DNA from: Deferribacterales bacterium
GTDB lineage: Bacteria > Chrysiogenota > Deferribacteres > Deferribacterales > Geovibrionaceae
Direction: 5' to 3'
Length of the DNA: 64,000 nt
Assembly (NCBI GenBank): GCA_050251945.1
Contig: JBFWLW010000004.1
Span: 32,001 to 96,000, forward strand
The notes under the pieces: model-generated
What the model was told of the DNA's origin: nothing
The model's input: only the letters and a program-made list of their open reading frames with translations
Database searches by the model: none
In this document: in pieces, positions 954 through 51,991 of the stretch
Layout: each line of letters starts with the position of its first letter
How positions within the stretch are numbered: position 1 is the stretch's first letter
Made by a program: the position numbers and the translations under genes

Positions 954-2497
<1,544 letters not shown>

Positions 2498-2507
2498 TCA
2501 ACAAATG

Positions 2508-3503
2508 TTATTCGGCGTAAACGCCTTCGTCATTCGCCCAGTTAACTGCTTTTTCTATCTCCTGCGAAAGGGAAAAAACAGCCATAGCGTAGTTTACCCG
2601 CGGGTTATAGCGCGAGATGGCGTAAAAGTTGTTGAAGAATATCCAGTATTCCTTTCCGTCCGTGCCGTCAAGTGTGTAAAGTGTGACCTTTGCGTCGGTC
2701 GGGAAATCTCCTCTGGGGGTTATGCCGCTGTCAGTCAGTTCCTGAAGAGTTTTTGACGGGCGCATTGAGCGGCTGTTGTACGTCTGCCATGTATCGCCGG
2801 AAACGTCCGCCTGAACAGCGACCGGATCTCCGAGTATGTATCTGTGACCTGACAGATATTTCGCAACGCTTCCGATAGCATCCGTCATGGAGTTCACAAG
2901 GTCTGTTTTACCGTCCCCGTCGAAGTCCACGCCGTAGCTGTCAAAATTGGAAGGCATGAACTGCGGATAACCGATGGCGCCCGCATATGAGCCTTTGTAT
3001 GTCAGCGGATCAACGTCTTCGCGGTCGGCTATAATGAACAGCCATTGCAGTTCTTTTGTGAAGAACGCGCTCCGGTTCGGCGAGTTGAATGCCAGCGTTG
3101 CCAGCATGTCCGCCGCGCGCAGTTTAAGCTGATATTTGCCGTAATTTGTTTCCACACCGAGGATGGCGGCTATGACGTATCTGCTCACCCCGAACTGGTG
3201 TTCCGCACGGATAAGGTCGCCTTCATTGGCAAGATAAAAATCCAGTCCGCCACGGATACGGTCGTCGGTGATAAACAGTTTTTTGTATTCTCCCCAAGGT
3301 TTTGCCTCAGTCGGTTTCGCAGTTCTGTTCAGAGCCAACTCCTTGATGTCAGTACCGTACAGCCACCATTCCACCTTATCGGCGGGAACCCCGTAACAGC
3401 TTTCCATATTGGCGGCGAATTCGTGGATATCCTTGTTGATCTCGAAAGCCTCCGAACGGGCGAAGAGCGTCATAGTTAAAAGAAATAGCAGGTATTTTTT
3501 CAT
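2508..3503 (-). CDS. mltB: Lytic murein transglycosylase B family
   Basis: Signal peptide; ILGVETNYG catalytic Glu; GSYAGAIGYPQFMPS; VDFDGDG. Confidence 0.9.
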   Translation of the reverse strand: MKKYLLFLLTMTLFARSEAFEINKDIHEFAANMESCYGVPADKVEWWLYGTDIKELALNRTAKPTEAKPWGEYKKLFITDDRIRGGLDFYLANEGDLIRAEHQFGVSRYVIAAILGVETNYGKYQLKLRAADMLATLAFNSPNRSAFFTKELQWLFIIADREDVDPLTYKGSYAGAIGYPQFMPSNFDSYGVDFDGDGKTDLVNSMTDAIGSVAKYLSGHRYILGDPVAVQADVSGDTWQTYNSRSMRPSKTLQELTDSGITPRGDFPTDAKVTLYTLDGTDGKEYWIFFNNFYAISRYNPRVNYAMAVFSLSQEIEKAVNWANDEGVYAE

Positions 3504-3610
3504 AAGAGTTTCTGGTCTTTTATTTATTTTAGTTTATAATCGGATAGACAGTATTAAAGCATGAATGTTTTAAAATAAATAGTTTTTTTGGGACAATGTG
3601 AGGTAAAGAC

Positions 3611-3684
3611 GGGATCGCCGCGTCGCTGCGCTCCTCGCGAAGACGGACTTCCGTCTCTGCGAGGGCTTCAGCCGAAGCAGTCTC
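3611..3684. repeat. REP-like intergenic doublet, family A copy 1
   Basis: GGGATCGCCGCG...CTCGCGAAGAC followed by inverted GTCTCTGCGAG...CGAAGCAGTCTC; related copies at 9829, 17301, 23731, 25755 and 36176. Confidence 0.8.
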
Positions 3685-4870: not shown

Positions 4871-7369
4871 ATGAAAGCTGTTGTTATGGCGGGAGGATTC
4901 GGAACGAGAATCCAGCCGCTCACTTCAAGTATGCCCAAACCCATGATACCCGTTTTCAACAGACCCATGATGGAATACATCATCGGTTCGCTCAAAGCGG
5001 CCGGCATAGTGGACATAGTCATACTTCTCTATTTCAAACCTGATGTCATAAAAGGATATTTCGGCGACGGCTCCGACTTTGGCGTCAGGATAAACTATGT
5101 CCTTCCCGACGACGACTACGGCACTGCCGGAGCTGTTAAAAAAGCTCAGAAATACCTTGATGAAAGGTTCATAATCGTAAGCGGCGACCTTATCACCGAT
5201 TTCAAGATTCAGGAGATAATCGGTTTTCACGAGGTCAAAAACTCGCTTGCAACCATCACGCTTACATCCGTTCCCGACCCGCTGCAGTTCGGCGTTGTTA
5301 TAACTGACAAGGAGAGCAAGATTCTCCGTTTCCTCGAGAAACCGGGCTGGGGCGAGGTTTTCAGCGACACGATAAACACCGGTATCTACGTTTTCGAGCC
5401 GGAGATACTGCAATATATTCCAGAAGATTCAAACTTCGACTTTTCCAAAGACCTGTTCCCGAAACTGATGGCGAGCGGGATAGATATTTTCGGTTACAAC
5501 GCAAAAGGTTACTGGCGCGATGTTGGCAACCCCGATTCATACCGCGCGGCGCTTCTTGACATCATGGAAGGGCAGGTGACGCTTCCCTTCACAGGCACAC
5601 TGCGCGAGGAAAAATCCGCCCATATTTACATAGGAAACAACTGTGAAATTGACGAATCCGCCCGTTTCGAGGGGCTTGTGGTTATAGACGACGGCTGTGT
5701 CATCAAAAAAGATTCGGTGATAACAGATTCGGTGATCGGCAGGAACAGCGTTGTGGAGGAAAAGGTTAAGATCACTGACTCTATCCTCTGGAATGATTGT
5801 CTGGCGGGCAAAAGCAGCGTACTCAGGAACGCTGTGCTTTGCGACAGGGTAAAACTGGGTTCAAGCGTTAAGGCTGAACACGGTGTTATCATTGCAGAAG
5901 GCACGGAGGTCGGCAATCAGGTCATATTTGAAAAAGACGTGATGGTCTGGCCTGAAAAGCAGATAGAGGCAGGCTCAATCGTCAGCAGCAACCTAATCTG
6001 GGGCGATAAATGGAAGAAATCCATTTTTGAAGGCGGCAAGGTGTCCGCAAGAACAAACGTCGAGCTTTCACCAGATATGGCGGCGAAACTCGGTGCGGCG
6101 CTGGGAAGCCAGCTGCCTCAGGGATGCCGCGTGCTGATGTCCAGAGACTATGACAGAGCTTCGCGAATGTTGAAAAGATGTTTCCTCGGCGGTCTGCTCT
6201 CAACAGGTGTCAATGTTACCGAACTGCGCATGACTCCTCTGCCTATCATGAGGCACAAACTGTCCATGTTCGGCGAGGTGGCGGGTGTTTATTTCCGTCA
6301 GTGCCAGTCCGATCCGACGAATACCGAGATCCTTTTCTATGACGATTCCTCACTGCTCATCGACAGCAACACGGAGAAGAACGTCGAACGCATCTTCTTC
6401 CGGGAAAACTATCGCAGAGCAACGCAGGACGATATAGGCGAAATTTACGACCAGATGATGGTCAACGAATTTTATAAAGAGGGAGTGTTGAAAAATATCG
6501 ACATAACGCTCCTGAAAAGCCGCAGAAGCAAAATAGTGGCTGACCTTACAAACGGCACCACGGATATGATTTTCCCCGAACTTCTCAACAAGGCTGGGAT
6601 TGATGCCGTTGTTCTGAACGCATACCGCGACGAGAAGAAGCTTTCAAGAACCATGCACCAGAGCGAAATGAGCTTCAGAGAGGTATCTGACATCGTTAAG
6701 GTTACTGAATCCGAACTGGGAATTGTGGTTTATCCGCATGGCGAACGGTTGGGGATTATAACCGACAAAGGCGAGATGCTTTCCGAGGATAAGGCGCTGA
6801 TGTTCATGCTGAAACTCATCGACCTCACCGCGAAGAGCAAACTCAGGGTATATCTGCCTGCATACGCACCCACGGTGCTTGACGATTCGCTGATGAACGT
6901 TGAGATAACACGCGGCAAAGGGAGCGGCATTAAGGCGGAATTCCTGCGGAACTTCTATTTCACAGGCGACCTTAACCGGAATTTCATATTCATTAAGAAC
7001 GGAATACATGCCGACGCCATGTTCAGCTCGCTGAAAATGCTGGAGATGATGGCAAGGCACAACGTAAAAATAAGCGACGTGCTGAAAACAATACCCGACT
7101 ATTATTTCAGCCACACTGTCATCAACTGCCCGCTTGAGATGAAGGGCTATCTGATGCGTAAAATAAGCGAAGAGGCTATGGACAAAGAGGCTTCTTTCCT
7201 TGACGGCATCAAGATAATGTTCAAGGGAAAGGGCTGGGTGCATATGGTTCCGGATCAGTTCACGGCGAACGTCCACCTTTATGTGGAGGCGGTGAGCGAG
7301 AGGGAATACGGTCGTTTGCACGGTGAATTTAAAGAAAAGATAAACGGATGGCTTCAGGAGCAGGAGTAG
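4871..7369 (+). CDS. Sugar-1-phosphate nucleotidyltransferase (mannose-1-P guanylyltransferase-like) with hexapeptide repeats, fused to a phosphomannomutase-like domain
   Basis: MAGGFGTRIQPLT..PKP, FLEKP, YWRDVG, left-handed beta-helix repeats, C-terminal PGM/PMM-like region. Confidence 0.88.
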   Translation: MKAVVMAGGFGTRIQPLTSSMPKPMIPVFNRPMMEYIIGSLKAAGIVDIVILLYFKPDVIKGYFGDGSDFGVRINYVLPDDDYGTAGAVKKAQKYLDERFIIVSGDLITDFKIQEIIGFHEVKNSLATITLTSVPDPLQFGVVITDKESKILRFLEKPGWGEVFSDTINTGIYVFEPEILQYIPEDSNFDFSKDLFPKLMASGIDIFGYNAKGYWRDVGNPDSYRAALLDIMEGQVTLPFTGTLREEKSAHIYIGNNCEIDESARFEGLVVIDDGCVIKKDSVITDSVIGRNSVVEEKVKITDSILWNDCLAGKSSVLRNAVLCDRVKLGSSVKAEHGVIIAEGTEVGNQVIFEKDVMVWPEKQIEAGSIVSSNLIWGDKWKKSIFEGGKVSARTNVELSPDMAAKLGAALGSQLPQGCRVLMSRDYDRASRMLKRCFLGGLLSTGVNVTELRMTPLPIMRHKLSMFGEVAGVYFRQCQSDPTNTEILFYDDSSLLIDSNTEKNVERIFFRENYRRATQDDIGEIYDQMMVNEFYKEGVLKNIDITLLKSRRSKIVADLTNGTTDMIFPELLNKAGIDAVVLNAYRDEKKLSRTMHQSEMSFREVSDIVKVTESELGIVVYPHGERLGIITDKGEMLSEDKALMFMLKLIDLTAKSKLRVYLPAYAPTVLDDSLMNVEITRGKGSGIKAEFLRNFYFTGDLNRNFIFIKNGIHADAMFSSLKMLEMMARHNVKISDVLKTIPDYYFSHTVINCPLEMKGYLMRKISEEAMDKEASFLDGIKIMFKGKGWVHMVPDQFTANVHLYVEAVSEREYGRLHGEFKEKINGWLQEQE

Positions 7370-7370
7370 T

Positions 7371-9464
7371 ATGAAGAAACTCAGGCTGTGTTTCCTATGG
7401 CATATGCACCAGCCATATTATAAGGATGACCTTGACGGGCTGTATCATATGCCGTGGGTGTATCTGCATGCCCTGAAGGATTACTACGAACTTCCATATT
7501 ATCACAAGATATTTACAAAGATAAAGGGTACATATAATCTTGTACCCTCTCTCCTTGTCCAGCTCGCGGATTATACCTCTGCGGGCGTTTCGGACATATT
7601 CATAAAACTGATGCTGAAAGACGTTCGCGAGCTTACGCAGGATGAGAAAAATATTCTTATCCCTCAGCTTTTTATGGCGAACTACAAGAATCAGGTGAAA
7701 CCGCTGAAAAGATATCGCGAGCTTTATGACCGCAAGGGTGACACTCCTCTGTTTGAAACAGCGAAGCTGAACTATTCCGATCAGGATATTCTTGATCTTG
7801 AGGTGATGTACCTCATAAGCTGGTGCGGTGTGTTTACGCGCAAAGATGTCCCGTTTGCTCAGGAACTTATTAAGAAGGGCAGGGATTTTCTGCACAACGA
7901 TAAGCTGCACTTCATGGACAAACTGGCGGAGTTTGTCGCGTCGATAGTTCCGCTTTATAAAGATTTACAGAATAACGGAAATATCGAGGTTTCGGCAACT
8001 CCTTTCTATCACCCGATACTGCCGCTTCTGCTCGACCCGAAAAGTGCGAAAGAGGCGCTGCCCGACATCTCCATGCCCAGCATATCGGTGGATTTTTTAC
8101 CGCATGCGCGGGTTCATGTGCAGTCGGCTGTTGACTATTATCAGGAGATATTCGATTCCCCGCCCAAAGGCATGTGGCCTGCGGAGGGGAGTATTTCAAA
8201 TAAAGCTGCGGAGCTTTTCAAAAACTGCGGCATAGGCTGGATTGCCAGCGACGAGGACGTGCTTTCAGCTTCCATAGGGCGCGACCTGCGGGACAAACAG
8301 CAGAGACAGAGACTTTACAAACGCCATGGGTTCAGCACACCCGACGGCAGTATAAATATATTTTTCAGAGACAAGGAACTTTCAGACCTTGTGGGTTTCA
8401 CCTACAGTAGCTGGGAAGCGGAAAAAGCTGTTGATGATTTCATGACCAAACTGTCTGAAATCTATGATATGTGCGATTTTTCGCCCGTTGTTCCTGTTAT
8501 TCTGGATGGCGAGAATGCGTGGGAATATTACCCTGAAAACGCATCAAAATTCTTTGAACTGCTTTATACGAGGCTCTCTGCGTGCAACTGGATCGAGACG
8601 CTCACAATGAGCGAGGCGGCGGAGTGCGACACTCCCGAAGAGCCTCTGGACAGGATACGCGCCGGTTCATGGATATATGCGAACTTTACCACTTGGATGG
8701 GACATCCCGAAAAGAACGAGGCGTGGCGGATACTCTCCGACGCATACATCAGATATGCCGCGAAAGCGCATGCGGCTCAGGATATTTCGGCTGTTGAAAA
8801 GGAGCTTTATGCTGCGGAGGGTTCGGACTGGTTCTGGTGGTACGGCGACGATCATTTCAGCTTGCAGTCTGACGTTTTCGACAAGCTTTTCCGCAGACAC
8901 ATTGCCAACGTTTACACTCTGCTCGGTGAAAAAGTGCCGCCGGAAGTTCATCAGCCCATTAAGAAAAGTCATAAATCCGGACTGCTGAAAACACCTGCGG
9001 GCGAGATGACTCCAGTCATTGACGGCAAAGTGACGAGCTTTTTTGAATGGCTCGGCGGCGGACGGTTCGACCTGAAATTTGATGCAGGCGCAATGACGGC
9101 ATCGTCGAACGTTCTGCATATGCTCTGGTTCGGTTATGACCCGCAGAATTTTTATCTGCGGATAGACGGGACTTTCAGGGATATTCTGAATCTTGGATAT
9201 GAGCTTGAGGCGGAGATAACGGCGGGTGAGACGAAATCCGTTCTTTTTCCGCTTGTTTATGAATTCAGCGGAAACAGCGGGGAAACTTCCTGCTGTGAAT
9301 CGGTTTTTGAGGCATCCGTACCTCGCGTATACGCCAACGGCTCGGACAAGATATATTTGACATTCCGCCTGCGCCGCGACGGACGCATAATTGAAACGGC
9401 ACCAGTGTACAATACCGTCGAGATAGACCTGTCGCATGACGGCAGACAGGACTGGATAGCATAA
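7371..9464 (+). CDS. Glycoside hydrolase family 57 (amylopullulanase-like)
   Basis: WHMHQPYY, PFYHPILPLL, GMWPAEGS, ILDGENAWE, AEGSDWFWW. Confidence 0.92.
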   Translation: MKKLRLCFLWHMHQPYYKDDLDGLYHMPWVYLHALKDYYELPYYHKIFTKIKGTYNLVPSLLVQLADYTSAGVSDIFIKLMLKDVRELTQDEKNILIPQLFMANYKNQVKPLKRYRELYDRKGDTPLFETAKLNYSDQDILDLEVMYLISWCGVFTRKDVPFAQELIKKGRDFLHNDKLHFMDKLAEFVASIVPLYKDLQNNGNIEVSATPFYHPILPLLLDPKSAKEALPDISMPSISVDFLPHARVHVQSAVDYYQEIFDSPPKGMWPAEGSISNKAAELFKNCGIGWIASDEDVLSASIGRDLRDKQQRQRLYKRHGFSTPDGSINIFFRDKELSDLVGFTYSSWEAEKAVDDFMTKLSEIYDMCDFSPVVPVILDGENAWEYYPENASKFFELLYTRLSACNWIETLTMSEAAECDTPEEPLDRIRAGSWIYANFTTWMGHPEKNEAWRILSDAYIRYAAKAHAAQDISAVEKELYAAEGSDWFWWYGDDHFSLQSDVFDKLFRRHIANVYTLLGEKVPPEVHQPIKKSHKSGLLKTPAGEMTPVIDGKVTSFFEWLGGGRFDLKFDAGAMTASSNVLHMLWFGYDPQNFYLRIDGTFRDILNLGYELEAEITAGETKSVLFPLVYEFSGNSGETSCCESVFEASVPRVYANGSDKIYLTFRLRRDGRIIETAPVYNTVEIDLSHDGRQDWIA

Positions 9465-9815
9465 AACTTCAGGATGAAGTTCGTGGAGTGAGCGTGTCAG
9501 GCTTTGCCTGTTAAGCGAACGCAACGTGAGCGGAAAGAGGCTTAGCCGATTGGAGCGATATCATTATTTTCCCAAGGACGGGAAAATAATGCGAAACTAT
9601 AGACCTGTCGCATGACGGCAGACAGGACTGGATAGCATAAAACTTCAGGATGAAGTTCGTGGAGTGAGCGTGTCAGGCTTTGCCTGTTAAGCGAACGCAA
9701 CGTGAGCGGAAAGAGGCTTAGCCGATTGGAGCGATATCATTATTTTCCCAAGGACGGGAAAATAATGCGAAACTATAGACCTGTCGCATGACGGCAGACA
9801 GGACTGGATAGCATA
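9423..9815 (+). repeat. Tandem array with 176-bp period: three copies of the last 41 bp of the GH57 gene separated by two identical 135-bp structured elements
   Basis: ATAGACCTGTCGCATGACGGCAGACAGGACTGGATAGCATA at 9423, 9599 and 9775; identical inserts at 9464-9598 and 9640-9774. Confidence 0.95.
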
Positions 9816-9828
9816 GACCGGATAAGAG

Positions 9829-9898
9829 CAGATTACTTCGCTCCGCCCGCAAAGACGTTTTTTTGTCTCTGCGAGGAATGGAGTGACGAAGCAGTCTC
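9829..9898. repeat. REP-like doublet, family A copy 2
   Basis: CAGATTACTTCG...CGCAAAGAC / GTCTCTGCGAGG...CGAAGCAGTCTC. Confidence 0.75.
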
Positions 9899-9921
9899 AT
9901 TCACTTTTACGGAGAATATAA

Positions 9922-11979
9922 ATGAAACTTCCCTTACACCTTGGAATACATTGTCACCAGCCGGTGGAAAATTTTTATAACGTGGTGGATATCGCGGTTG
10001 AGAAGAGCTATCAGCCCTTTTTTGAACTGCTTCTGAAAAAAAACGGCATGAAGGTGAGCGTTCACTACAGCGGCTGGCTGTTTGAATACATAAAGAACCA
10101 CCACAAAAAACTTTTCGGCATGATGCAGGATGCAAACAGCGCCGGACAGGTGGAGTTCTTTTCAGGCGGGTTTTACGAGCCTGTGCTTGCCGCCATACCG
10201 TCCAGAGACCGCAAAGAGCAGATAAAAAAGCTGAACGGCTTCATCGAGAATAATTTTAAAGTGTCGCCGAAAGGGCTATGGCTCACGGAGAGGGTGTGGG
10301 ACAGCTCCATAATTCCTGACTGTGCCGACTGCGGCATTGAATACGTTATAGTGGACGATTACCACTTCATCGCCGCCGGATTCTATGAATCCATGCTCCA
10401 CGGTCATTTCAAAACGGAGCAGGACGGGCGTGAGATGCTGATATTCCCTATCAGCGAAAAACTGAGATACATGATACCCTTTAAGCCCGCGAAAGATGTT
10501 GTCGGGTATCTGGGCGAGATAGCGGAACAGGGCGGTAAATCGCTGACGATATTTGACGACGGCGAAAAGTTCGGTCTCTGGCCTGAAACTCACGAATGGG
10601 TTTATGAAAAGGGCTGGCTGAACGATTTTGCCGATGCAGTTAATGACAGCGGACACAGCGAATTTGCGCTGTTCAAAGATACTGTGGAAACGGTGCCTCC
10701 TTCGCAGATAGCCTATCTGCCCACCGTTTCATACTTTGAGATGGGAGAATGGTCGCTGTTTGCAGAGCGCACCAACAAAATGGCGGAGTTTTTGAAAGAG
10801 ACTGAAAAACTGCACAGGGACGATACCGCGAAGGTGTTTATTAAAGGCGGCATCTGGAAGAATTTTCTGGTTAAATATCCCGAATCCAACCGTATCCATA
10901 AGCGGACGCTGAAATTGTCGAAAGACGCTGACAGACTTAAAGATGAAAGACTTTACGAGGCATTGTATAAAGCGCAGTGCAACGACGTGCTGTGGCACGG
11001 GATATTCGGCGGACTTTACCTGCCTAATCTGCGGAACAACGCATACCGTTTTATCATAGAGGGTGAAAAACTGGTGGAAGAGCTGGACGGTACGGCTTAT
11101 CCGTCCATGGAGAAAGGGGATTTCGATTTCGACGGTTACGACGAGGCGTACGTCCGCACACCTGAGCTGAACTTTATGTTCGTATCTGTTGACGGCGGAC
11201 AGCTCGTTTCCGTTGAGGACAAGGCGAACTGTTATAATTTTCTGAACACGCTGGCGCGCCGCAAAGAGGCATACCATGAAAAAATGCTGAACTCTGCGGA
11301 ACCGGAAGATGCTGAAACGGCTGAAGAGGCTGATGAAGAAGGTATCAGTACAATACATAACGACAGCCGCGCCGACAGCGCCGCCTATAAAGAATATCTG
11401 GTTTACGACTGGCACAATAAAAACTGTTTCATTGACCATTTCGTGCATCGGTTCGATGCGGAGGAGTTCAGAAACGTCAGCTTCGGCGAGATGGGGGATT
11501 TTGCAAACCAGCCCGCCGTAATGATATCTTCGGAATCCGGTCTGACTTTCACCCGTGAAGGTGGACTTTATAAATACGGACAGAAACTGCCGTGCCGTGT
11601 GACAAAGGAATTCTCTTTCGATAAAAAAGGGTTGGAACTCAGGCTGAACATAGATTCGGAGCTTGATGAAGAGATAGATTATGTCATGGAGATGAACTTT
11701 CATTTCAATGACCTTGAAAATGTTTTGATAAACGGAAAAACGCCTGATGAGTCTGAAGGTGTTGATTGGACAAAAATAGAATTGGGAGAAAAGCATACGC
11801 CTTCAAAACTGTTGATAGAGATGAGCGGAGGTGCTAAACTGTACACATATCCAGTGCTGACGGTTTCCCAGTCCGAAAGCGGGGCGGATCTGACGCATCA
11901 GGGTATCTGTCTGCTTCTTCCGTTCAGGTTCAGAAAGCATCTTGAGCTTGAGTGCAGGCTCTCTCTGTCGGGGGAATGA
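9922..11979 (+). CDS. GH57 alpha-amylase / 4-alpha-glucanotransferase
   Basis: HCHQP, GGFYEPVL, GLWLTERVW, FDDGEKFG, AQCNDVLWHGIFGGLY, C-terminal beta domain. Confidence 0.92.
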   Translation: MKLPLHLGIHCHQPVENFYNVVDIAVEKSYQPFFELLLKKNGMKVSVHYSGWLFEYIKNHHKKLFGMMQDANSAGQVEFFSGGFYEPVLAAIPSRDRKEQIKKLNGFIENNFKVSPKGLWLTERVWDSSIIPDCADCGIEYVIVDDYHFIAAGFYESMLHGHFKTEQDGREMLIFPISEKLRYMIPFKPAKDVVGYLGEIAEQGGKSLTIFDDGEKFGLWPETHEWVYEKGWLNDFADAVNDSGHSEFALFKDTVETVPPSQIAYLPTVSYFEMGEWSLFAERTNKMAEFLKETEKLHRDDTAKVFIKGGIWKNFLVKYPESNRIHKRTLKLSKDADRLKDERLYEALYKAQCNDVLWHGIFGGLYLPNLRNNAYRFIIEGEKLVEELDGTAYPSMEKGDFDFDGYDEAYVRTPELNFMFVSVDGGQLVSVEDKANCYNFLNTLARRKEAYHEKMLNSAEPEDAETAEEADEEGISTIHNDSRADSAAYKEYLVYDWHNKNCFIDHFVHRFDAEEFRNVSFGEMGDFANQPAVMISSESGLTFTREGGLYKYGQKLPCRVTKEFSFDKKGLELRLNIDSELDEEIDYVMEMNFHFNDLENVLINGKTPDESEGVDWTKIELGEKHTPSKLLIEMSGGAKLYTYPVLTVSQSESGADLTHQGICLLLPFRFRKHLELECRLSLSGE

Positions 11980-31040: not shown

Positions 31041-34000
31041 TGTCTTTTTCCGGTGCGCTAAATACGAGTATGCCGTTCTGCGCCAGTTTATCCGCGTATC
31101 CGTCCCGTCCGAAGCAAAGGGCAAATTCCTGTAATACGCCTGCGGTGTCATCCTCTTTAACATCAGGGTAAAGCTTTTTATAAACTTTCCTAAACGCTTT
31201 GAAGCCGTCGTCGGGGGTGAAGCAGAACGGACTTTTAAGACCGTTCAGGAAAATTTCCGCATAGGTCTGCAATGCTTCTTTGCGGCAGTCGGCGGAAAGA
31301 AAAGTCCTTTCTCCCTCTATGTTTATGAGAATGGCGTTTATATCGTACCCTTTGTTCAGGAGGATAAGATGGCGTATCCGCGCCTTTAGCAGGTCTTTCG
31401 GTTTCAGCTTTCCGTTTTTTGTGTATATAAGCCCGTCTTCGGTTATATTGTCTATTCTGAAATTTATCCTCAGATTGCCTACGGTTATGCTGTCGGTGAT
31501 ACTGAACGGCGTTCCGTGCGCCGTAACAGCTTCGCAGACCTGTCCGGATTCTCTGGTTATCTTTTGTTTGTATCCCTCTCCAAGTCCTCCGGCAGGTATT
31601 TGTGCCGTCGCCTGTGCGTATGCCAGCAGGTCGCCCGCATTTTCAGAGTTCAGCATCCTGCGGGTGGTCTCCGCGCGCAGATTGTACTGCTGTAAGGCGT
31701 CCAGCACCAGCCGTTCGGTGTCCGGCAGTGCCTCGAATTTTTCTGAAAGCTCAATGCCAAGTGTGGAGTTCAGAAAATAGCCTGGCGGATTCATGAAGAA
31801 CCGCTCAAAAGCCTCAAGCGAGACCTCCAAAGGCATTTCAGCAGGGAGTTCGCCTGTGCAGAAATTCCTTTCTTCGTATTGGGTTCCGAATACCGATGCA
31901 GCTGCATATCTTTCGGGGCTGTATGTAAAAAGTTTTCCGTCGCCTTTGAAATACTTCCTGCTGAAGCTGTGCAGCGGATGTTCTGTTGCGGTGTTTTCCA
32001 TGCCGAACCGCTCTTTCAGATGGCGCAGAAGTTCCGTCACCGCTATTGACGGCACCAGAAGTCTGTTGTCGGTCTCGCTTCTGCCCGTATAGCTCAGATA
32101 AAGCCTGTCTTTCGCACTGATGAGAGTTTCAAGGAAAAGATATTTATCGCTCTCCCGCTGGGTTCTGTCGCCTTTGTCCGGTTTTGCGGAGATAAGATCG
32201 AATTCAGGCTCGGTCTTGAGTCTGGGGAAAGCGCCGTCGTCCATGCCCAGAACACAGATAACCCTGAAAGGGATGCTCCGCATCGGCAGCATGGCACAGA
32301 AGGTGGTTTTTCCCGTGATGAACCCTTTGGAGGTTTTAACTTCATCAAGTTTGCCGGAGATTGTTTCGTAAATCGGTCTGAACGGCATATTTATGCGGCA
32401 GTCTTCAGTTTCCGTGCGCACGTCGGCTATCATCTTTGCAATGTTAACGTTTTCGTCAGCGTATTCCGGCTCGGTGCTTAAAAAGCTGTCCGCCATTTCT
32501 GAAAGGATTGAACACCATTCGTCGGCTCTGCGTTCGCCATTCAGCATTTTGGAAAAATTTGTGCAGAGTTCCACAAAGCGCATCAAACCGCCAAGCTGTT
32601 TCGCCATTGAGAAGGGAACGTCGTTCCCTGCGGCTTCCGTATAAATTGCGCGTCTGCCGCCCTCCGCAAGCCCCAGCGCAAGTCTGCGCATGGCTCTGTC
32701 CCATGTGAAAGGGATGTCGGCGGTTATTCCGTCGGCGCGCATTGCCTCCGCGTCGATGCCCCAATAGGCTCCGTTGCGTTCCAGAACCTCCGCCATGTCG
32801 CTGACACGGGAGATTGCGAACCTGCCGGATATGACCGGACTTTCAATAAGTTTTATGACCGCTGAAAGGCTGAATTCACCCGTTACGGCTGAAACCAGTT
32901 CCGAAAAAACGTTTGCGGTGCGGCTCTCTGCCTTTGCGGGGATGTCCGCTATGGTGTACGGGATGGTCTCCTTTTCTCCGTACGGGTTGTCGAACACCGC
33001 ACGGATGTAAGGTGCATAACGCTGGATGTCCGGTGTCATAACCAGTATATCGGCGGGTGTGATGGTATCGTCGTCAGCCAATGTATCCAGCATGAAATCG
33101 TATAAAACCTGAACCTCGCGCAGGGGATTGTGACATGAATTTATGACGATGGAGCCGTCGGGTGTTATACCGTCCCTTTTGGCAAAGTCGTATATCTCCG
33201 CCTGTATTTCGCCCAGAAGGGTGTTTGCAGGTGGTTCGTCAAAGTATTCGTATCTTATGTTCGCATTGTCGTTGGCTGTGAGGAACTCGAAAAAGTCCCT
33301 GCCCATGGTGCCGAGGTTGTCCAGAAGCGGATGGTTGCGGAACATCATAAGCTCTTCGCGTGTTTTGCCCGTGCGTTTCTCCGCATAGCTTATCTCTCTG
33401 TCAGACATTGAGTCGCCGAAATATTCCGCCGACGGACAGAGCAGGTACAGGTTCACGTCCGTGCCGCCGCTGACAGCAAAAAGAACTTCCATGAAAAATC
33501 GCGGTATCACGCTTATTCCGAATAGATGCACCGTGTCAATATTTGCAAGGTCAACCCTGCCTGCGGAGCAGTCTTTCATAAAATTTCGAAGCACAAATGT
33601 CTTACATCGGTTTTTGTCGGGGAACGCCTCGCTGAAAAGCCACGGCTGCCAGCTTTCGATATTTTTGGTGCGTTCGTGCGCGCCCTGTGTCAGCCAGTCC
33701 TTTACCATTGCGGGTCTGTATATCTGGTACTGGTCAAAGATATCCGCTATCTTCTGCGCCAGTCTGAAGGTTTTTATCTTTCGGGGGTCTTTGCTGATGT
33801 AGTTTATTATTTCGGTGTTTACGCCGTTGTCTTTCGCTTCTGTCAAAATCCTGTATATGCGCCATGTGAGCTGCTGCCTGTCCACCCAGAGGTTTTCCGG
33901 ACCGAAGTGTCTTTCGGCAACTCTCCTTATAAGAGCGGCAGGGAAAAGATAGTCCAGATTTGCGCTGATGCCCGTCTGTTCTGCAAGTTTCAGACCTATC

Positions 34001-39367: not shown

Positions 39368-39397
39368 ACAGGATTTGTTTTTATAAATAGTAGAGTT

Positions 39398-39471
39398 CGG
39401 GATGTAGCGCAGCTTGGTAGCGTACCTGTCTTGGGAACAGGTGGTCGCAGGTTCAAATCCTGTCATCCCGA
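39398..39471 (+). tRNA. tRNA-Pro(TGG); probable prophage integration site
   Basis: Full cloverleaf CGGGATG/CATCCCG-A, anticodon loop CTTGGGA, TTCAAAT T-loop; integrase stop 26 bp downstream. Confidence 0.96.
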
Positions 39472-39497
39472 TTTATATTTCCTTTAAAGCCAATGGT

Positions 39498-40682
39498 TTA
39501 GCCGTTGGCTTTTTCATTTGGCACGTTTTTGGCACTTTTAGAAGTTGAATTGAGTATGCTTACACGTTCGGCACTGTCCTTGTTTATCCGGTTGCCGTAG
39601 GTTTTTAGAAGCATCTGAAGTGTGCTGTGTCCGAGCATATTTTTTATCCAGTTGAGTTGTGCGCCGGCTTCTATGAAAAGGCAGGCGAAAGTATGGCGGG
39701 TTTGATAGATGTTGCGGTATTTGATACCCAGAGCTTTTAGACATGGTTCGTAATAAGTTTTTGATACGTTCTGAATCTGGTGGAAAGGCTCACCAAGGTA
39801 TGACGTAAACATCCAGTCAGATTTCATGAATGAATACTGCTTATGTCTTGACAAATACGGATCAAGGCTCGTTTCTATATCTATTGTGCGGCTTTCTTTC
39901 GTCTTAGTGGATTCTTTTATCTGCCCTTTCGTCATTGTCCTGCGGACATGGATTTTGTTTCTTCTAAAATCAATATCGTTCCATTTCATAGCCATTATTT
40001 CCCCGGTGCGCATTCCTGAAAAAAATGCTACAGCAAAGAAAGCGGTCATGTGAGGATGGTGTTTGTCCATCCAGTCAAGGATCAGCTCTATTTCGTCTTG
40101 CTCAAAAGGGTCTATCTCTGCGGACTGCACACGGGGCTTACTCACATAGCCGCATGGGTTCTTATCGAGAATATCATCAGCAACAGCGGTTTTGAATATG
40201 CTTGAGAGCATACCTATCATATTACTCATGGTCTTAGGGGCAATGTCGTATTCACGAATGAACCCTTGAACTGTGGATGCTTTTATATCTGAAATAGGAA
40301 TGTTTTTAAAGTAGTCGCAGAAGATGTTAATGAATCCGGTGTATGTTCGGAGCGTCGAATATGCCAGAGACTTTTCTTTCAATCGTAACCATTGTTGGGC
40401 GTATACTGAAAAGCCGACAGTTTTAGAAGTGTCTGACAAGCTGAACTTTTTCAGGTTTTTAGATTTCGGGAAATAGTCGCCGTATCGAAAAATACCTTCT
40501 TTGATTTTGCGGTCAATTTCGGCAACATAAGCGGATGCAAGGCGACATTGTTGGCAATTACAACCTGTGTTGCCAGTTTCGCACATGTATTTTGTCGGCT
40601 CGAAACAGCGGATGCCCCGATAGACAAAGAATACCCGTATCTGATTTTTCTTTCCTCTGACTTGTGTTCCGCCCATGCCCAT
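39498..40682 (-). CDS. int: Tyrosine recombinase (phage integrase) with N-terminal arm-binding domain
   Basis: SGMRTGE, YQTRHT, LGH, catalytic Tyr; N-terminal FRYGDYFPKS. Confidence 0.95.
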   Translation of the reverse strand: MGMGGTQVRGKKNQIRVFFVYRGIRCFEPTKYMCETGNTGCNCQQCRLASAYVAEIDRKIKEGIFRYGDYFPKSKNLKKFSLSDTSKTVGFSVYAQQWLRLKEKSLAYSTLRTYTGFINIFCDYFKNIPISDIKASTVQGFIREYDIAPKTMSNMIGMLSSIFKTAVADDILDKNPCGYVSKPRVQSAEIDPFEQDEIELILDWMDKHHPHMTAFFAVAFFSGMRTGEIMAMKWNDIDFRRNKIHVRRTMTKGQIKESTKTKESRTIDIETSLDPYLSRHKQYSFMKSDWMFTSYLGEPFHQIQNVSKTYYEPCLKALGIKYRNIYQTRHTFACLFIEAGAQLNWIKNMLGHSTLQMLLKTYGNRINKDSAERVSILNSTSKSAKNVPNEKANG

Positions 40683-48694: not shown

Positions 48695-48767
48695 TGCGGG
48701 TAGGGGGATTTGAACCCGCGACCTCCTGTTCCCAAAACAGGCGCGCTACCAACTGCGCTATACCCAC
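48695..48767 (-). tRNA. Phage-encoded tRNA-Pro(TGG)
   Basis: GTGGGTA/TACCCGC-A acceptor, GCGC D-stem, loop TTTGGGA, TTCAAAT; one C-C mismatch in the T-stem. Confidence 0.85.
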
Positions 48768-49058: not shown

Positions 49059-49244
49059 TTATATGAACTCTACGTCGCCGTATGTTTTCTTTGCCCATGT
49101 CTGAAAGTCTTCCGTAACTTCACCCTTCGCCTTCAGCGTCGCATGATGGAGTAGGTTCGGCAGAAGCATCACGCAACGACCGTCAGCCGTGTTTGTCAAC
49201 GGTTTCTGCTTTTTTCGGAGAAACCGTATTATCTGTTTCAGCAT
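49059..49244 (-). CDS. Hypothetical phage protein
   Basis: GGAGG RBS before ATG at 49244. Confidence 0.6.
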   Translation of the reverse strand: MLKQIIRFLRKKQKPLTNTADGRCVMLLPNLLHHATLKAKGEVTEDFQTWAKKTYGDVEFI

Positions 49245-49531
49245 TTTTAGCCTCCAACTTTGAAAGTCCTCTATCGGATACGAGATGTGATTCGTTCGCA
49301 AAATCAATCAGTTCCGCGTATCGCACCTTGTCTGTAGCTATCGAAATTAAGTGGTAAAGCACCTGCTTTTCGATTCTTTCATCTATACGCATCTTGAGGC
49401 TGCCGCACCAAAGAGGTATTGAAGCGAAATCAAGGTCTGCGCCGCTCAGGTCTGCGCCGCTCGCCGTCATCTTCATCTTCAAGCCACTTTTCGTGGTCGT
49501 CCAAAATCTTTCTTATTTCTTCAGGTGTCAT
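49183..49531 (-). pseudogene. Pentapeptide-repeat protein, frameshifted
   Basis: N-terminus MTPEEIRKILDDHEKWLEDEDDGER is out of frame with SGADLSGADLDFASIPLWCGS. Confidence 0.7.
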
Positions 49532-49644: not shown

Positions 49645-49838
49645 GCGCCTACCTCCTCTTTCGGCTGAATCTTGTGTCCTATGGAAACGCAAACCCAACA
49701 CCTTGAGGTATGTGGGAGGCTTTTCTGAAACTCAGCAGACTCGACAGCTTTTGCCTGAGTGAACATTTTTTCTTGTTTCAAATGCTCTACTTCTTTCTTA
49801 GTCAGGTCTTTTGCCCATGTCGGGAGTTTTGCTCTCAT
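49641..49838 (-). CDS. Hypothetical protein, first gene after the leftward promoter
   Basis: GGAGGA RBS, ATG at 49838. Confidence 0.7.
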   Translation of the reverse strand: MRAKLPTWAKDLTKKEVEHLKQEKMFTQAKAVESAEFQKSLPHTSRCWVCVSIGHKIQPKEEVGA

Positions 49839-49856
49839 ATCGTCCTCCATGATGGG

Positions 49857-49908
49857 ATGATATAACATTACTGTTAGTCTGTCAACAGTAAATCTAACAG
49901 AAATGTTA
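49857..49908 (-). promoter_or_regulatory. Leftward early promoter (PL-like) with two operators
   Basis: TTGACA-17 bp-TATCAT; TAACA-N4-TGTTA palindromes at 49863 and 49895. Confidence 0.85.
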
Positions 49909-49975
49909 TTTATTTTTGCATTATTGTGGTTTGATTGTTTTAGTTATTGATATAGAAAGGAATTAAGATTGAAAA

Positions 49976-50419
49976 TTATTGAGATAAAAAGCGTAAAAGT
50001 TTGTTGATCTCTTTTTCTTTCATGTTTTCATAATTTACGGTGCCGTTGAACCCTTGTGATATGAGAATCTTTTTGCATATTTCTATTTTCTGATTTCTTG
50101 TGGGAATAATAATACTGAGAACAAAAACACTAAGATCATACAACTCGAGTGTTTTCTCGGGCTGCATAAAATCATTAAGTTCATTAAAAGAGATATTTAA
50201 ATGTGTCCGAGTAAATCTTTTAAGCCAGTTTTCAGATTTTCCAATACTTTTAAGTTGATTACGGATGCTTTGAATAGTGTCTTCTCTCCATAATCGTTCC
50301 AAAACAGATTGTGGAAGAAATTTACAGGTTTTACATTGAAATATATTTAGATTACCGCTATTTATACCAATCTGAATAGATTCGTTTCCTGAATTATCCT
50401 GATTTATAATCATCAACAC
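49976..50419 (-). CDS. Repressor-linked hypothetical protein with N-terminal RHIM-like motif and CxxC
   Basis: AT-rich ORF 6 bp downstream of the repressor; NQDNSGNESIQIGINSGNLN. Confidence 0.75.
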   Translation of the reverse strand: MLMIINQDNSGNESIQIGINSGNLNIFQCKTCKFLPQSVLERLWREDTIQSIRNQLKSIGKSENWLKRFTRTHLNISFNELNDFMQPEKTLELYDLSVFVLSIIIPTRNQKIEICKKILISQGFNGTVNYENMKEKEINKLLRFLSQ

Positions 50420-50425
50420 CAGTCA

Positions 50426-50860
50426 TTAAAAAGTTGATAATCTTTTGAACTCATTAAGCCTTTCAAGCAATTTTTCTTTAAATTCATTCGGGGCGTACAC
50501 CAGCATTTCTATAATTTGTGATTCAATATTATCTTTATTAAATGCTTGGCTGTTGTTAAACGTTCCGGAATTTGTTCCAAACTGAATATTGTTATTACCA
50601 GAATTGTTTTGGTTTACCGAGTAGTCCTCAATTTGGATATCTCCAAAAAAATATGATATTGGCAATTCAAGTATGTTTGCTATTTCTACAAGCCTTGGCG
50701 TTGCAATTCCATTCCCTTGCTTAAGACTTCTGTAAAGAGATGCTGGATCAATATTTAATTGATCAGCAAGTTCAGCAATATTCATATCTCTAAGCTTTGC
50801 GCCAGCCCTTATTCTATCACTAATAACATCAAAAATTTCATGCGGTGCATATTTTTTCAT
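50426..50860 (-). CDS. XRE/CI-like HTH repressor without an S24 peptidase domain
   Basis: MNIAELADQLNIDPASLYR HTH; divergent from the cro-like gene across operators. Confidence 0.85.
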   Translation of the reverse strand: MKKYAPHEIFDVISDRIRAGAKLRDMNIAELADQLNIDPASLYRSLKQGNGIATPRLVEIANILELPISYFFGDIQIEDYSVNQNNSGNNNIQFGTNSGTFNNSQAFNKDNIESQIIEMLVYAPNEFKEKLLERLNEFKRLSTF

Positions 50861-50878
50861 AATCAATAATACTCCATA

Positions 50879-50947
50879 TAACATAACTGTTAAATAGCAA
50901 GGATGTTATATTTATATCTTGACAAACTAACACATATGTTATATCTC
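50879..50947 (+). promoter_or_regulatory. Rightward early promoter (PR-like) with three operators
   Basis: TTGACA at 50919; TAACA-N4-TGTTA at 50879 and 50928, one-mismatch copy at 50895. Confidence 0.85.
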
Positions 50948-50963
50948 TAATACAGGAGGACAC

Positions 50964-51164
50964 ATGCAGTTAAAAGAATACATCAAGCAATTTCACGACG
51001 GCAATCTGACAGATTTTAGCAGAGCATCCGGAGTACCACTGATGAATCTATCAAGGTATACAAGGGGCGGAACACCTAGCCCTGAATATATCAAAAAAAT
51101 AGAATCAGTTACGAATGGCAAGGTTTCTCTTGATGATTTCGTCAATAAAAATAAATCCGCTTAG
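50964..51164 (+). CDS. Cro-like HTH protein
   Basis: 66 aa; FSRASGVPLMNLSRY...PS...IESVTNGKVS. Confidence 0.85.
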   Translation: MQLKEYIKQFHDGNLTDFSRASGVPLMNLSRYTRGGTPSPEYIKKIESVTNGKVSLDDFVNKNKSA

Positions 51165-51214: not shown

Positions 51215-51991
51215 ATGAGCAATATCAAACTCTTTGAACATGAGAGGTTCGGGCAGGTGCGGACACTGACCGATGCAAACGGCGAGCCGTGGTTTCTTGC
51301 ACAGGAAATCACAAGAGTTCTTGGATATCTGAATAATGCAGAGGCAATAAGAACAAACGTTGACGAGGATTGTTTCAGGCAAATCTATATCCCAGAATTA
51401 TCAAACAATTACACTCTTATTAATGAAAGCGGACTTTATTCTTTAATAATGAGGTCTCAAAAAGAAGAGGCAAAAGTCTTCCGCAAATGGGTGACATCCG
51501 AAGTCCTTCCCAGCATCCGCAAGCACGGCGCGTACATGACACCGGATGTTATCGAAAAAACGCTTCTTAATCCAGACTACCTCATTCAGCTTGCAACAAC
51601 ATTGAAAGAATCGCAGGAACAGAACCGGAAACTGAACGAGAAGATTGCCGCCGATGCCGACAAAGTGGCTTTTGCTGAATCGGTGAATAAGACGGTGGAC
51701 AATTTAACCGTCAGAGACTACGCAAAAGTTCTTTATAACGAAAACATCAAGCTCGGTCAGAACAGACTTTTCCACCTGCTCCGCATGAAAGGAATTTTGG
51801 ACAGAGACAATAAGCCATATCAAAAATACATAGATAATGGCTGGTTCGTTCTGAAGCTCTCGACATATCGCAATTCATCCACAGACAACATCATCGAATA
51901 CACTCAACCACGTATCACAGGCAAAGGGCAAATTGCGCTCAGAACCCGCATACTCGCGTGGATATCAGGCGACGAGGCGGTGGGAGAATGA
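51215..51991 (+). CDS. Phage antirepressor (BRO-N + KilA-C/ANT)
   Basis: INESGLYSLI, FRKWVTSEVLPSIRKHGAY, GQNRLF, ITGKGQ. Confidence 0.93.
   Translation: MSNIKLFEHERFGQVRTLTDANGEPWFLAQEITRVLGYLNNAEAIRTNVDEDCFRQIYIPELSNNYTLINESGLYSLIMRSQKEEAKVFRKWVTSEVLPSIRKHGAYMTPDVIEKTLLNPDYLIQLATTLKESQEQNRKLNEKIAADADKVAFAESVNKTVDNLTVRDYAKVLYNENIKLGQNRLFHLLRMKGILDRDNKPYQKYIDNGWFVLKLSTYRNSSTDNIIEYTQPRITGKGQIALRTRILAWISGDEAVGE

Follow-up and report, generated by a model that had tools for sequence, protein, structure and literature searches.

The 64,000-nucleotide stretch of DNA analysed here (the window; contig JBFWLW010000004.1 of a Deferribacterales bacterium, positions 32,001 to 96,000) carries a lambdoid prophage. 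The immunity region of this prophage is a cassette in which the gene of an XRE-type repressor and that of a small neighbouring protein, hereafter the partner, form a two-gene unit. We found that these two proteins share a motif of 20 residues, that their families occur in the same genomes, and that the motif varies in concert in the two proteins from one mobile element to another. On the basis of these comparisons we propose, at about an even chance of being right, that the partner docks on its own repressor through the motif and modulates it.

The repressor and its partner share a 20-residue motif

The repressor gene (50426..50860, minus strand) encodes 144 residues, with an XRE/Cro-C1-type helix-turn-helix (HTH) domain at about residues 6-71. 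The partner gene (49976..50413) starts on the same minus strand, 10 nucleotides past the stop codon of the repressor. It encodes 145 residues from the ATG at 50413, with a GTG at 50419 as an alternative start. The motif occupies residues 83-102 of the repressor (NQNNSGNNNIQFGTNSGTFN, 50555..50614, minus strand) and residues 4-23 of the partner, counted from ATG 50413 (NQDNSGNESIQIGINSGNLN, 50345..50404, minus strand). A first-pass annotation of the window had reported both open reading frames (ORFs) and both motifs, and re-reading of the sequence confirmed them at these positions.

Thirteen of the 20 residues are identical in the two copies. The same codon is used in 4/13 of them and a different one in 9/13, and the nucleotide identity is 38/60. 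Our recount thus agrees with the figures of the first-pass annotation, and the codon comparison bears out its view that the match is held at the protein level and does not stem from a recent DNA duplication. When the repressor was compared with the partner by BLASTP, only the motif region aligned (16/39 identical, E 2e-6 for this single comparison). The Smith-Waterman score of the pair was 74, as compared to a mean of 25.4 (standard deviation 4.9) for shuffled partner N-termini, and it was reached by 0/5000 shuffles. When the 3,074,336-base genome was translated in all six frames and scanned, three specific motif patterns hit nothing but these two sites; a fourth one, less strict, gave two extra, unrelated hits. 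Finally, profile-profile comparison of the two families with hhalign aligned only 15-16 motif columns. This ruled out a wider homology between the C-terminal helices of the repressor and the partner, and the earlier statement that the remainder of the two proteins is unrelated therefore holds at the profile level too.

Conservation of the motif was followed in relatives. The G-N-N-N-I stretch of the repressor motif is invariant among five aligned repressor relatives. A word-indexed search returned one variant of each protein (partner, 87%; repressor, 98%). The partner variant has 19 changes over 145 residues, only one of which falls in the first 26 residues, the other 18 being spread over the remaining 119. 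The repressor variant of this close pair has three changes, none within the motif. A contig from a freshwater metagenome run covers 49827-50829, shows 76 differences and apparently corresponds to the variant pair already described. No RNA data set was listed among the sequencing runs: those marked as possible RNA are probably DNA, and they cover flanking stretches only.

Using the motif pattern back-translated to DNA, two irrelevant loci were found in the viral contigs, one of them in a repeat protein (L025) and the other a GC-rich chance match; a stricter version of the pattern gave no locus in the genome contigs. The L025 protein is encoded at 2427-3650 of an IMG/VR contig of 464,605 bases. 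Its 407 residues are made up of many units in tandem, about 15 residues long and following the scheme G-x-N-S/V-V-Q-I/L-G-x-x-A-G-x-x-N-T-G, and one unit is closely similar to the motif of the window. The window motif looks like a single rung of an L025-type repeat, a shape needing stacking partners to fold.

Architecture of the two proteins

In both proteins the motif stands outside the folded domains. The repressor was modelled with AlphaFold2 (AF2) from a 5-row alignment, with a mean predicted local distance difference test (pLDDT) of 61.5. The model shows the HTH domain, a linker that holds the motif and is predicted to be disordered (pLDDT about 30; residues 78-113 are all below 50), and two C-terminal helices (109-120 and 125-142). 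Assignment of the HTH domain to the XRE/Cro-C1 type is based on the AF2 helices within residues 6-71 (pLDDT 68-87) and on profile matches. These were phrog_8 (E 7.2e-9) and phrog_4, 'transcriptional repressor' (E 7.1e-6), in PHROG, and HTH_26 (E 7.3e-4) and HTH_3 (E 0.01) in Pfam, the latter two being weak and under the curated cut-offs. The first-pass annotation had described the repressor as devoid of an S24 self-cleavage domain. Indeed, Pfam gave no Peptidase_S24 match at E up to 0.1, and the part C-terminal to the HTH domain is only about 70 residues long. A self-cleaving repressor of the LexA/CI type, defined by a C-terminal Peptidase_S24 domain, was accordingly rejected. No match to the repressor was found in 50,697 phage records.

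The partner begins with the motif, which is followed by a confident helical domain. Its AF2 model (6 rows) has a mean pLDDT of 80. The helical domain (residues 35-144) is mostly at pLDDT 82-94, and the motif lies in a low-confidence N-terminal hairpin with strands 12-18 and 21-27 (pLDDT about 50). The protein has no Pfam family above the curated cut-off, no PHROG family and no HExxH sequence, and neither database assigns it to a protease family. No transmembrane segment was detected in it (best 19-residue Kyte-Doolittle mean, 1.22). A membrane protein was ruled out for the family as a whole, the best 19-residue hydropathy being at most 1.23 in eight members; their isoelectric points range from 5.0 to 9.05. 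A CxxC following the motif had also been pointed out in the first-pass annotation. It is present in the window partner (C27, C30) and in the 87%-identical variant, but it is absent from six other family members and from the G007 partner. As the family has no conserved cysteines, a conserved CxxC or zinc site was discarded.

The partner had no match in 50,697 phage records (tblastn, E up to 1) or in the ESM Atlas, and the partner-family profile had none among Protein Data Bank (PDB) sequences. With VIA-align, residues 35-104 gave matches that are all under the caution line of the tool: 9rl4_V (Z 7.8, root-mean-square deviation 2.1 over 67 residues), 1pou (Z 7.0), 2o38_B, an XRE protein (Z 6.1), HipB (Z 4.9) and 1rio_A, the N-terminal domain of CI (Z 4.5). 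These best matches are lambda-repressor-like DNA-binding domains of the POU-specific (9rl4_V and 1pou), XRE, HipB and CI kinds.

Two rare families occur together and their motifs co-vary

Relatives of both proteins were sought in the complete sequences of 68 genomes sampled from the phylum, among protein representatives and in IMG/VR contigs. Both families are rare. HMMER searches with the partner over 1.84 billion representative proteins returned two proteins at E up to 0.001, itself and P0004 (34% identity), and a 7-row partner profile returned eight. The partner family (alignment A3) is present in 4/68 genomes, and so is the repressor family defined by the motif plus the C-terminus (A5). 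The four genomes are identical: this genome (G000, with two copies of each), G005, G013 and G007. One relative's protein carries the public-source label Denitrovibrio sp. MAG (metagenome-assembled genome). A sixth repressor-partner pair, L027, comes from an IMG/VR contig. When related loci were searched for in viral contigs, the partner gave two related stretches amounting to 0 distinct loci and the repressor gave none. No related locus was found for alignment A1 in metagenome contigs or for P0004 in genome, viral and metagenome contigs.

Two gene arrangements were observed. In the window and in G013, the repressor and partner genes lie side by side in the same orientation. In G005, in L027 and on contig C12 of this genome, which holds the second copy of the pair, both genes are part of the lysogeny module of an island that carries an integrase. 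The island order is integrase, partner, overlapping lipoprotein gene, one or two further genes, and the repressor in the opposite orientation. In these island-type elements, the partner gene overlaps the lipoprotein gene and does not share a transcript with the repressor gene. C12 (L019 3079-8219) is a second mobile element of this genome, with an integrase. Its partner-family gene (5484-5822) overlaps a lipoprotein gene (5786-6172), and its repressor, of the same subfamily (6841-7236), faces the early genes. C12 also encodes a 201-residue protein that begins with two CxxC pairs followed by a hydrophobic stretch.

To compare the motifs of the six elements, the linker segment of each repressor was scored against the first 40 residues of each partner (6x6 matrix, 5000 shuffles per pair). 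The window pair, with its score of 74, was followed by G013 (48, reached by 3/5000 shuffles), L027 (46, 1/5000), G007 (38, 168/5000), G005 (37, 327/5000) and C12 (17, 4177/5000). Five of the six partners scored best with their own repressor. The sum of the cognate scores, 260, is the maximum of the 720 possible pairings; after removal of the window pair, the sum of 186 is again the maximum, of 120 pairings. The shared sequence itself differs between elements, being NSGN..IQ.G.NSG in the window, GNNN.I...IN(N)STI in G013 and G.HNI..RD in L027. The first-pass annotation had made its proposal depend on the motif co-occurring in homologous gene pairs. The outcome favours the finding, since the families share the same four genomes and one pairing in 720 reaches the cognate sum.

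Operators and promoter-like sites flank the cassette

Five TAACA-N4-TGTTA palindromes flank the cassette. Two perfect copies form a left cluster (49863..49908, at 49863-49876 and 49895-49908), and three form a right cluster (50879..50941, at 50879-50892, 50895-50908 with one mismatch, and 50928-50941). The window contains six matches to this palindrome as compared to 1.77 expected, and at least six were found in 0/100 shuffles. The rightward lytic promoter-like site, TTGACA-17-TATCTC (50919..50947, plus strand), was read from the sequence; it is absent from the promoter scan list because the final base of its -10 box is C. Its spacer contains the operator 50928-50941, and it is followed downstream by AGGAGG and then by the ATG of a Cro-like gene. 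On the other side, the leftward lytic promoter-like site TTGACA-17-TATCAT (49857..49885, minus strand) agrees with the consensus at 11/12 positions and contains the operator 49863-49876 in its spacer. Both lytic promoter-like sites thus have a common design, TTGACA, 3 nucleotides, TAACA-N4-TGTTA and TATC, in which the operator fills the spacer. On this evidence, the TAACA-N4-TGTTA sites are putative cognate operators of the repressor, two of them lying within the spacers of divergent TTGACA promoters.

A third promoter-like site, TTAACA-16-TATTAT (50866..50893, minus strand), could serve the repressor-partner transcript and overlaps the operator 50879-50892. Because it ends 5 nucleotides upstream of the repressor ATG, the repressor mRNA may be nearly leaderless. 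The mRNA made from P_RM of lambda is likewise nearly leaderless. As the two operator clusters flank the cassette, the latter occupies the place of lambda cI-rexA-rexB, between O_L and O_R.

In G013 (L018), the same cassette stands between two clusters of another palindrome, AACCT-N4-AGGTT (ATAACCTT..AAGGTTAT). These clusters, at 9459-9516 and 10791-10846, are 1.33 kb apart. With both its operator type and its shared motif altered, the G013 prophage looks like a heteroimmune relative. Since a different palindrome goes with a different shared motif, the motif changes together with the immunity type. An extra plus-strand ORF of 126 residues (9538-9918), hydrophobic by eye, lies alongside the G013 cassette.

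A proposed docking of the partner on its repressor

In the model that we favour, the XRE-type repressor would bind the TAACA-N4-TGTTA operators that lie within the spacer of each divergent lytic promoter. The soluble, mostly helical partner would be made from the same leftward transcript as the repressor. Its N-terminal residues, about 20 in number, would pair with the matching segment of the flexible linker of the repressor in a like-with-like beta-strand contact, most likely in a manner that can be likened to SinI with SinR or RexA with CI. A direct contact of this sort is the simplest reading because the two rare families travel together and because their unstructured segments track each other. 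Motif pairing would let the partner single out its own repressor over the repressors of co-resident elements. Once bound, the partner would alter the oligomeric state or the activity of the repressor, and its effect, triggered by some signal, might be inhibiting or stabilising. A role as conditional anti-repressor or switch-biasing factor, replacing RecA-driven self-cleavage, appears the most likely one in view of the position of the gene and of the lack of an S24 domain in the repressor.

Several observations weigh against this model. As the partner would be expressed along with the repressor, it cannot be a constitutive inhibitor, and a trigger must be assumed. No function can be assigned to the helical domain of the partner, for which Foldseek gave no match in the PDB at E up to 0.001, and its lambda-repressor-like fold is a lead only, because all Z values are below the caution line. 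Only two of the six elements have the two genes side by side; the distance is 0.9-1.6 kb in G005, C12 and L027 and 33 kb in G007. The C12 pair, in the very genome of the window, has no motif similarity and is a clear miss; the G005 and G007 pairs show marginal motif similarity only. Moreover, the six elements come from one bacterial family and one viral contig, and three are related islands. As they are kin, the co-variation figures overstate their independence. It is nevertheless among kin (L027, G005 and C12) that the motifs are seen to change in concert. C12 combines a partner resembling the L027 type with a repressor of the G005 type, which would fit a recombinant and suggests an exchange of modules.

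Two regulatory systems offer useful comparisons. According to PMC3917956, SinI, the product of the gene next to that of SinR, forms a 1:1 complex with SinR by way of a segment common to both and thereby prevents its higher-order assembly into a tetramer. SinR/SinI of Bacillus subtilis (and SlrR/SlrA) resembles the present pair in joining an XRE-type repressor, which in the case of SinR has a C-terminal oligomerisation region, to a small neighbour that shares only a short segment with it. However, the shared element of SinR and SinI consists of alpha-helices (the 'helical hook'), whereas here it is Asn/Gly-rich and predicted to be a beta-hairpin or disordered. Also, the gene of the antagonist SinI lies upstream, with its own regulated promoter, whereas the partner gene lies downstream in the repressor operon. 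No sequence relationship was found between SinR/SinI and the present pair. As to lambda, P_RM yields RexA together with CI; RexA binds CI and promotes the lytic state, as reported in bioRxiv 10.1101/2021.04.19.439022. In lambda cI-rexA-rexB as in the window, genes lie downstream of the repressor and between the left and right operators; those of lambda are expressed in the lysogen, and that of the window presumably is too. In contrast to our pair, no shared motif is described for CI and RexA, and the repressor of the window lacks the S24 domain. In addition, a relative of Rex would be expected to stand out in Pfam or PHROG, and the partner matched no family in either.

Other explanations of the shared motif

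The first-pass annotation had called the motif RHIM-like and had proposed an amyloid-type switch. Upon a trigger, the partner would template the linker of the repressor into a cross-beta aggregate and so take it off the DNA; alternatively, a heritable co-aggregate would stabilise the repressor. We consider this fairly unlikely, even though the formal signature of an amyloid pair is present. The motif of about 20 residues is rich in N, G and Q, lies outside the folds and, in the window and G013, is shared by adjacent genes. It is more alike within pairs than between pairs across the six elements, the C12 pair excepted, and a central phi-Q-phi-G with flanking N-S-G gives it a pseudo-palindromic layout. 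Known amyloid pairs (bacterial BASS1-10 Bell/NLR and BASS11 Bab/Agp, fungal HET-S/NWD2 and PP, animal RHIM) likewise have an N/G/Q-rich motif with hydrophobic positions on adjacent genes. One of them, Bab/Agp, works in E. coli and sits in a prophage defence island. Yet these pairs join a sensor ATPase to a membrane-targeting effector, whereas here a transcriptional repressor is joined to a small helical protein. Neither of our proteins is an NLR-like sensor or a death effector according to Pfam and PHROG. The motif is N-terminal in the partner but internal in the repressor, where two helices follow it. The RHIM/PP/BASS3 signature is a central G-phi-Q-phi-G (bioRxiv 10.1101/2020.01.06.895854). 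The window has N-I-Q-F-G and S-I-Q-I-G, so that the first G is missing. The phi-Q-phi-G core is found in the window repressor and in 5/9 distinct partners (window, P0002, P0004, G005 and, as QIE, P0008). It occurs in 0/5 of the other repressor relatives compared, and Q-x-G is missing from the C12, G013, G007 and L027 partners. No Pfam model matched either motif segment of 35-37 residues at E up to 10, a test limited by the HMMER filters and by the short length. For these reasons (signature, unconserved core, internal position of one motif, no sensor or effector and no Pfam match), the motif was not filed as RHIM or BASS, and the RHIM-like label is not supported. Moreover, a repressor needs a reversible action at low copy number, which a stoichiometric contact suits better than a polymer.

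In a broader form of the amyloid idea, the beta-forming peptide would evolve fast and serve as an address label, by which a repressor is coupled to its own sensor; on a signal, the label of the sensor would template that of the repressor into a cross-beta assembly and so switch the element on. This reading, which we also regard as doubtful, would cover temperate phages as well as integrative islands and would apply the logic of amyloid signalling to the control of transcription and not of cell death. The label would be a second determinant of immunity beside operator specificity, in a class that would also span the RVAGRDY-type pairs described below.

Direct docking also has to be weighed against three explanations that need no contact between the two proteins. 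Both motifs may be recognised by a common third party, such as one protease, chaperone or adaptor of the host or of the element, with the partner as decoy or co-substrate. Short disordered segments are typical recognition tags, and a separate protease from a neighbouring gene often inactivates repressors without S24. This is the case with ImmR and ImmA, where an XRE-type repressor without S24 is followed in the operon by the inactivating gene, and ImmA is a zinc metalloprotease (HExxH). The partner, unlike ImmA, has neither HExxH nor a protease family, and the motif differs between the window and C12 and between related phages. A host factor common to both proteins is unlikely, as the motifs of two elements in one genome differ, and so, in our view, is the third-party explanation as a whole. 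We judge improbable that the partner is an unrelated gene expressed in the lysogen, for example a Rex-like exclusion or defence gene, whose N-rich strand serves its own oligomerisation, as would that of the repressor, the likeness reflecting the common descent of a handy oligomerisation peptide. Such self-assembly would be in keeping with the lambda rexAB-like position of the gene, downstream of the repressor between O_L and O_R, and with the separate transcript of the partner in the islands, but it leaves unexplained why the motif tracks the cognate repressor and why the two rare families are found only together. A functionless relic, namely an old partial duplication of the repressor linker at the start of the next gene, kept by weak constraint or compositional bias, is very improbable. 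It would agree with the low complexity of the motif, which has 8 N among 20 residues in the repressor and 6 in the partner. Nevertheless, shuffles that preserve this composition never reach the score of the pair. The different codons at nine of 13 identical residues show that the protein sequence was held while the DNA drifted, and the close variant of the partner kept its motif while the rest diverged.

Pairs of the RVAGRDY type and scope of the principle

A back-translated NNR[IV]AGRD[YF] pattern matched 76 IMG/VR loci (L028-L103). The pattern is found in two ORFs of one strand at 40/76 loci, in one ORF at 34 and in none at two; in 41 loci, the scan placed two copies 86-87 nucleotides apart. 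Among the distinct one-ORF cases, 21/27 have a near-identical variant in the tail or at the start of the neighbour. In the four examples listed, a 134-residue HTH repressor ends in the motif and a 216-residue protein with a hydrophobic tail starts with it. The repressor ends have the form ...G-x-R-[IV]-A-G-R-D-[YF]..., and the partners range from 117 to 216 residues, some having CxxC...CxxC directly after the motif. In these pairs the motif is at the extreme C-terminus of the repressor, whereas in the window it is internal and the partner is soluble. No kinship with our families was found by hhalign: the RVAGRDY partner against the present partner family (A6) gave E 0.16, and the RVAGRDY repressor aligned with the present repressor family (A4) over the HTH only, with a probability of 8%. 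The presence of such pairs in dozens of viral contigs suggests that the principle is widespread.

Full-text literature searches found no description of a repressor-partner motif pair or of a repressor with an amyloid motif, in agreement with the first-pass annotation, which knew of none for a phage immunity region. The BASS preprint of 2020 (bioRxiv 10.1101/2020.01.06.895854) contains none of the terms HTH, helix-turn-helix, repressor and phage, and neither these terms nor transcription appear in a 2025 paper on the detection of amyloid motifs. The principle recurs and, within the searches made, is undescribed; the window pair stands apart by its different host lineage, its internal motif and its soluble partner.

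Most textbook prophage switches use either RecA-driven self-cleavage or the binding of an anti-repressor to the DNA-binding domain. Linking a repressor to a protein encoded with it by means of a short, co-evolving peptide would represent a different coupling principle. If correct, it would explain how repressors without S24 may be inactivated in poorly studied bacteria. It would also show how co-resident elements could avoid cross-talk, the motif changing along with the operator type, and would give protein engineering a set of natural peptide pairs, orthogonal to one another and about 20 residues long. Should the contact be amyloid-like, amyloid signalling would be extended from the control of cell death to gene regulation.

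Prophage setting

At its left end, the prophage adjoins a tRNA-Pro gene (39397-39472, plus strand) next to a tyrosine integrase gene (39498-40682; phrog_1, E 2.8e-62); on the right side, it extends beyond the end of the window. Pfam and PHROG scans identified a RecT-like protein, an SbcC-like ATPase and a metal-dependent hydrolase in the leftward early operon. The repressor and partner genes, both on the minus strand, separate this operon from the rightward one. The latter starts with the divergent Cro-like HTH gene (50964..51164, plus strand, 66 residues; Pfam HTH_3 E 4.2e-5, 23.9 bits for a cut-off of 23; phrog_35 E 1.3e-6). Its second gene (51215..51991, plus strand) encodes an anti-repressor, Ant, with Bro-N and KilAC domains (Pfam Bro-N E 4.4e-24, ANT E 1.2e-22; phrog_130 E 1.7e-75). 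The operon also encodes SSB, DNA methyltransferases, an O-like replication protein, a resolvase-like protein, both terminase subunits, the portal and the head protease.

A second tRNA-Pro(UGG) gene lies within the leftward early operon (48695-48767, minus strand). It is identical to the first, beside the integrase, in 57/76 aligned columns. As the two copies differ, mainly in the acceptor stem, the phage appears to bring its own tRNA-Pro. The same operon contains a 99-residue ORF (49183-49482, minus strand) that has no PHROG match at E up to 1e-5 and displays a short stretch looking like pentapeptide repeats, GADLSGADLDFA.

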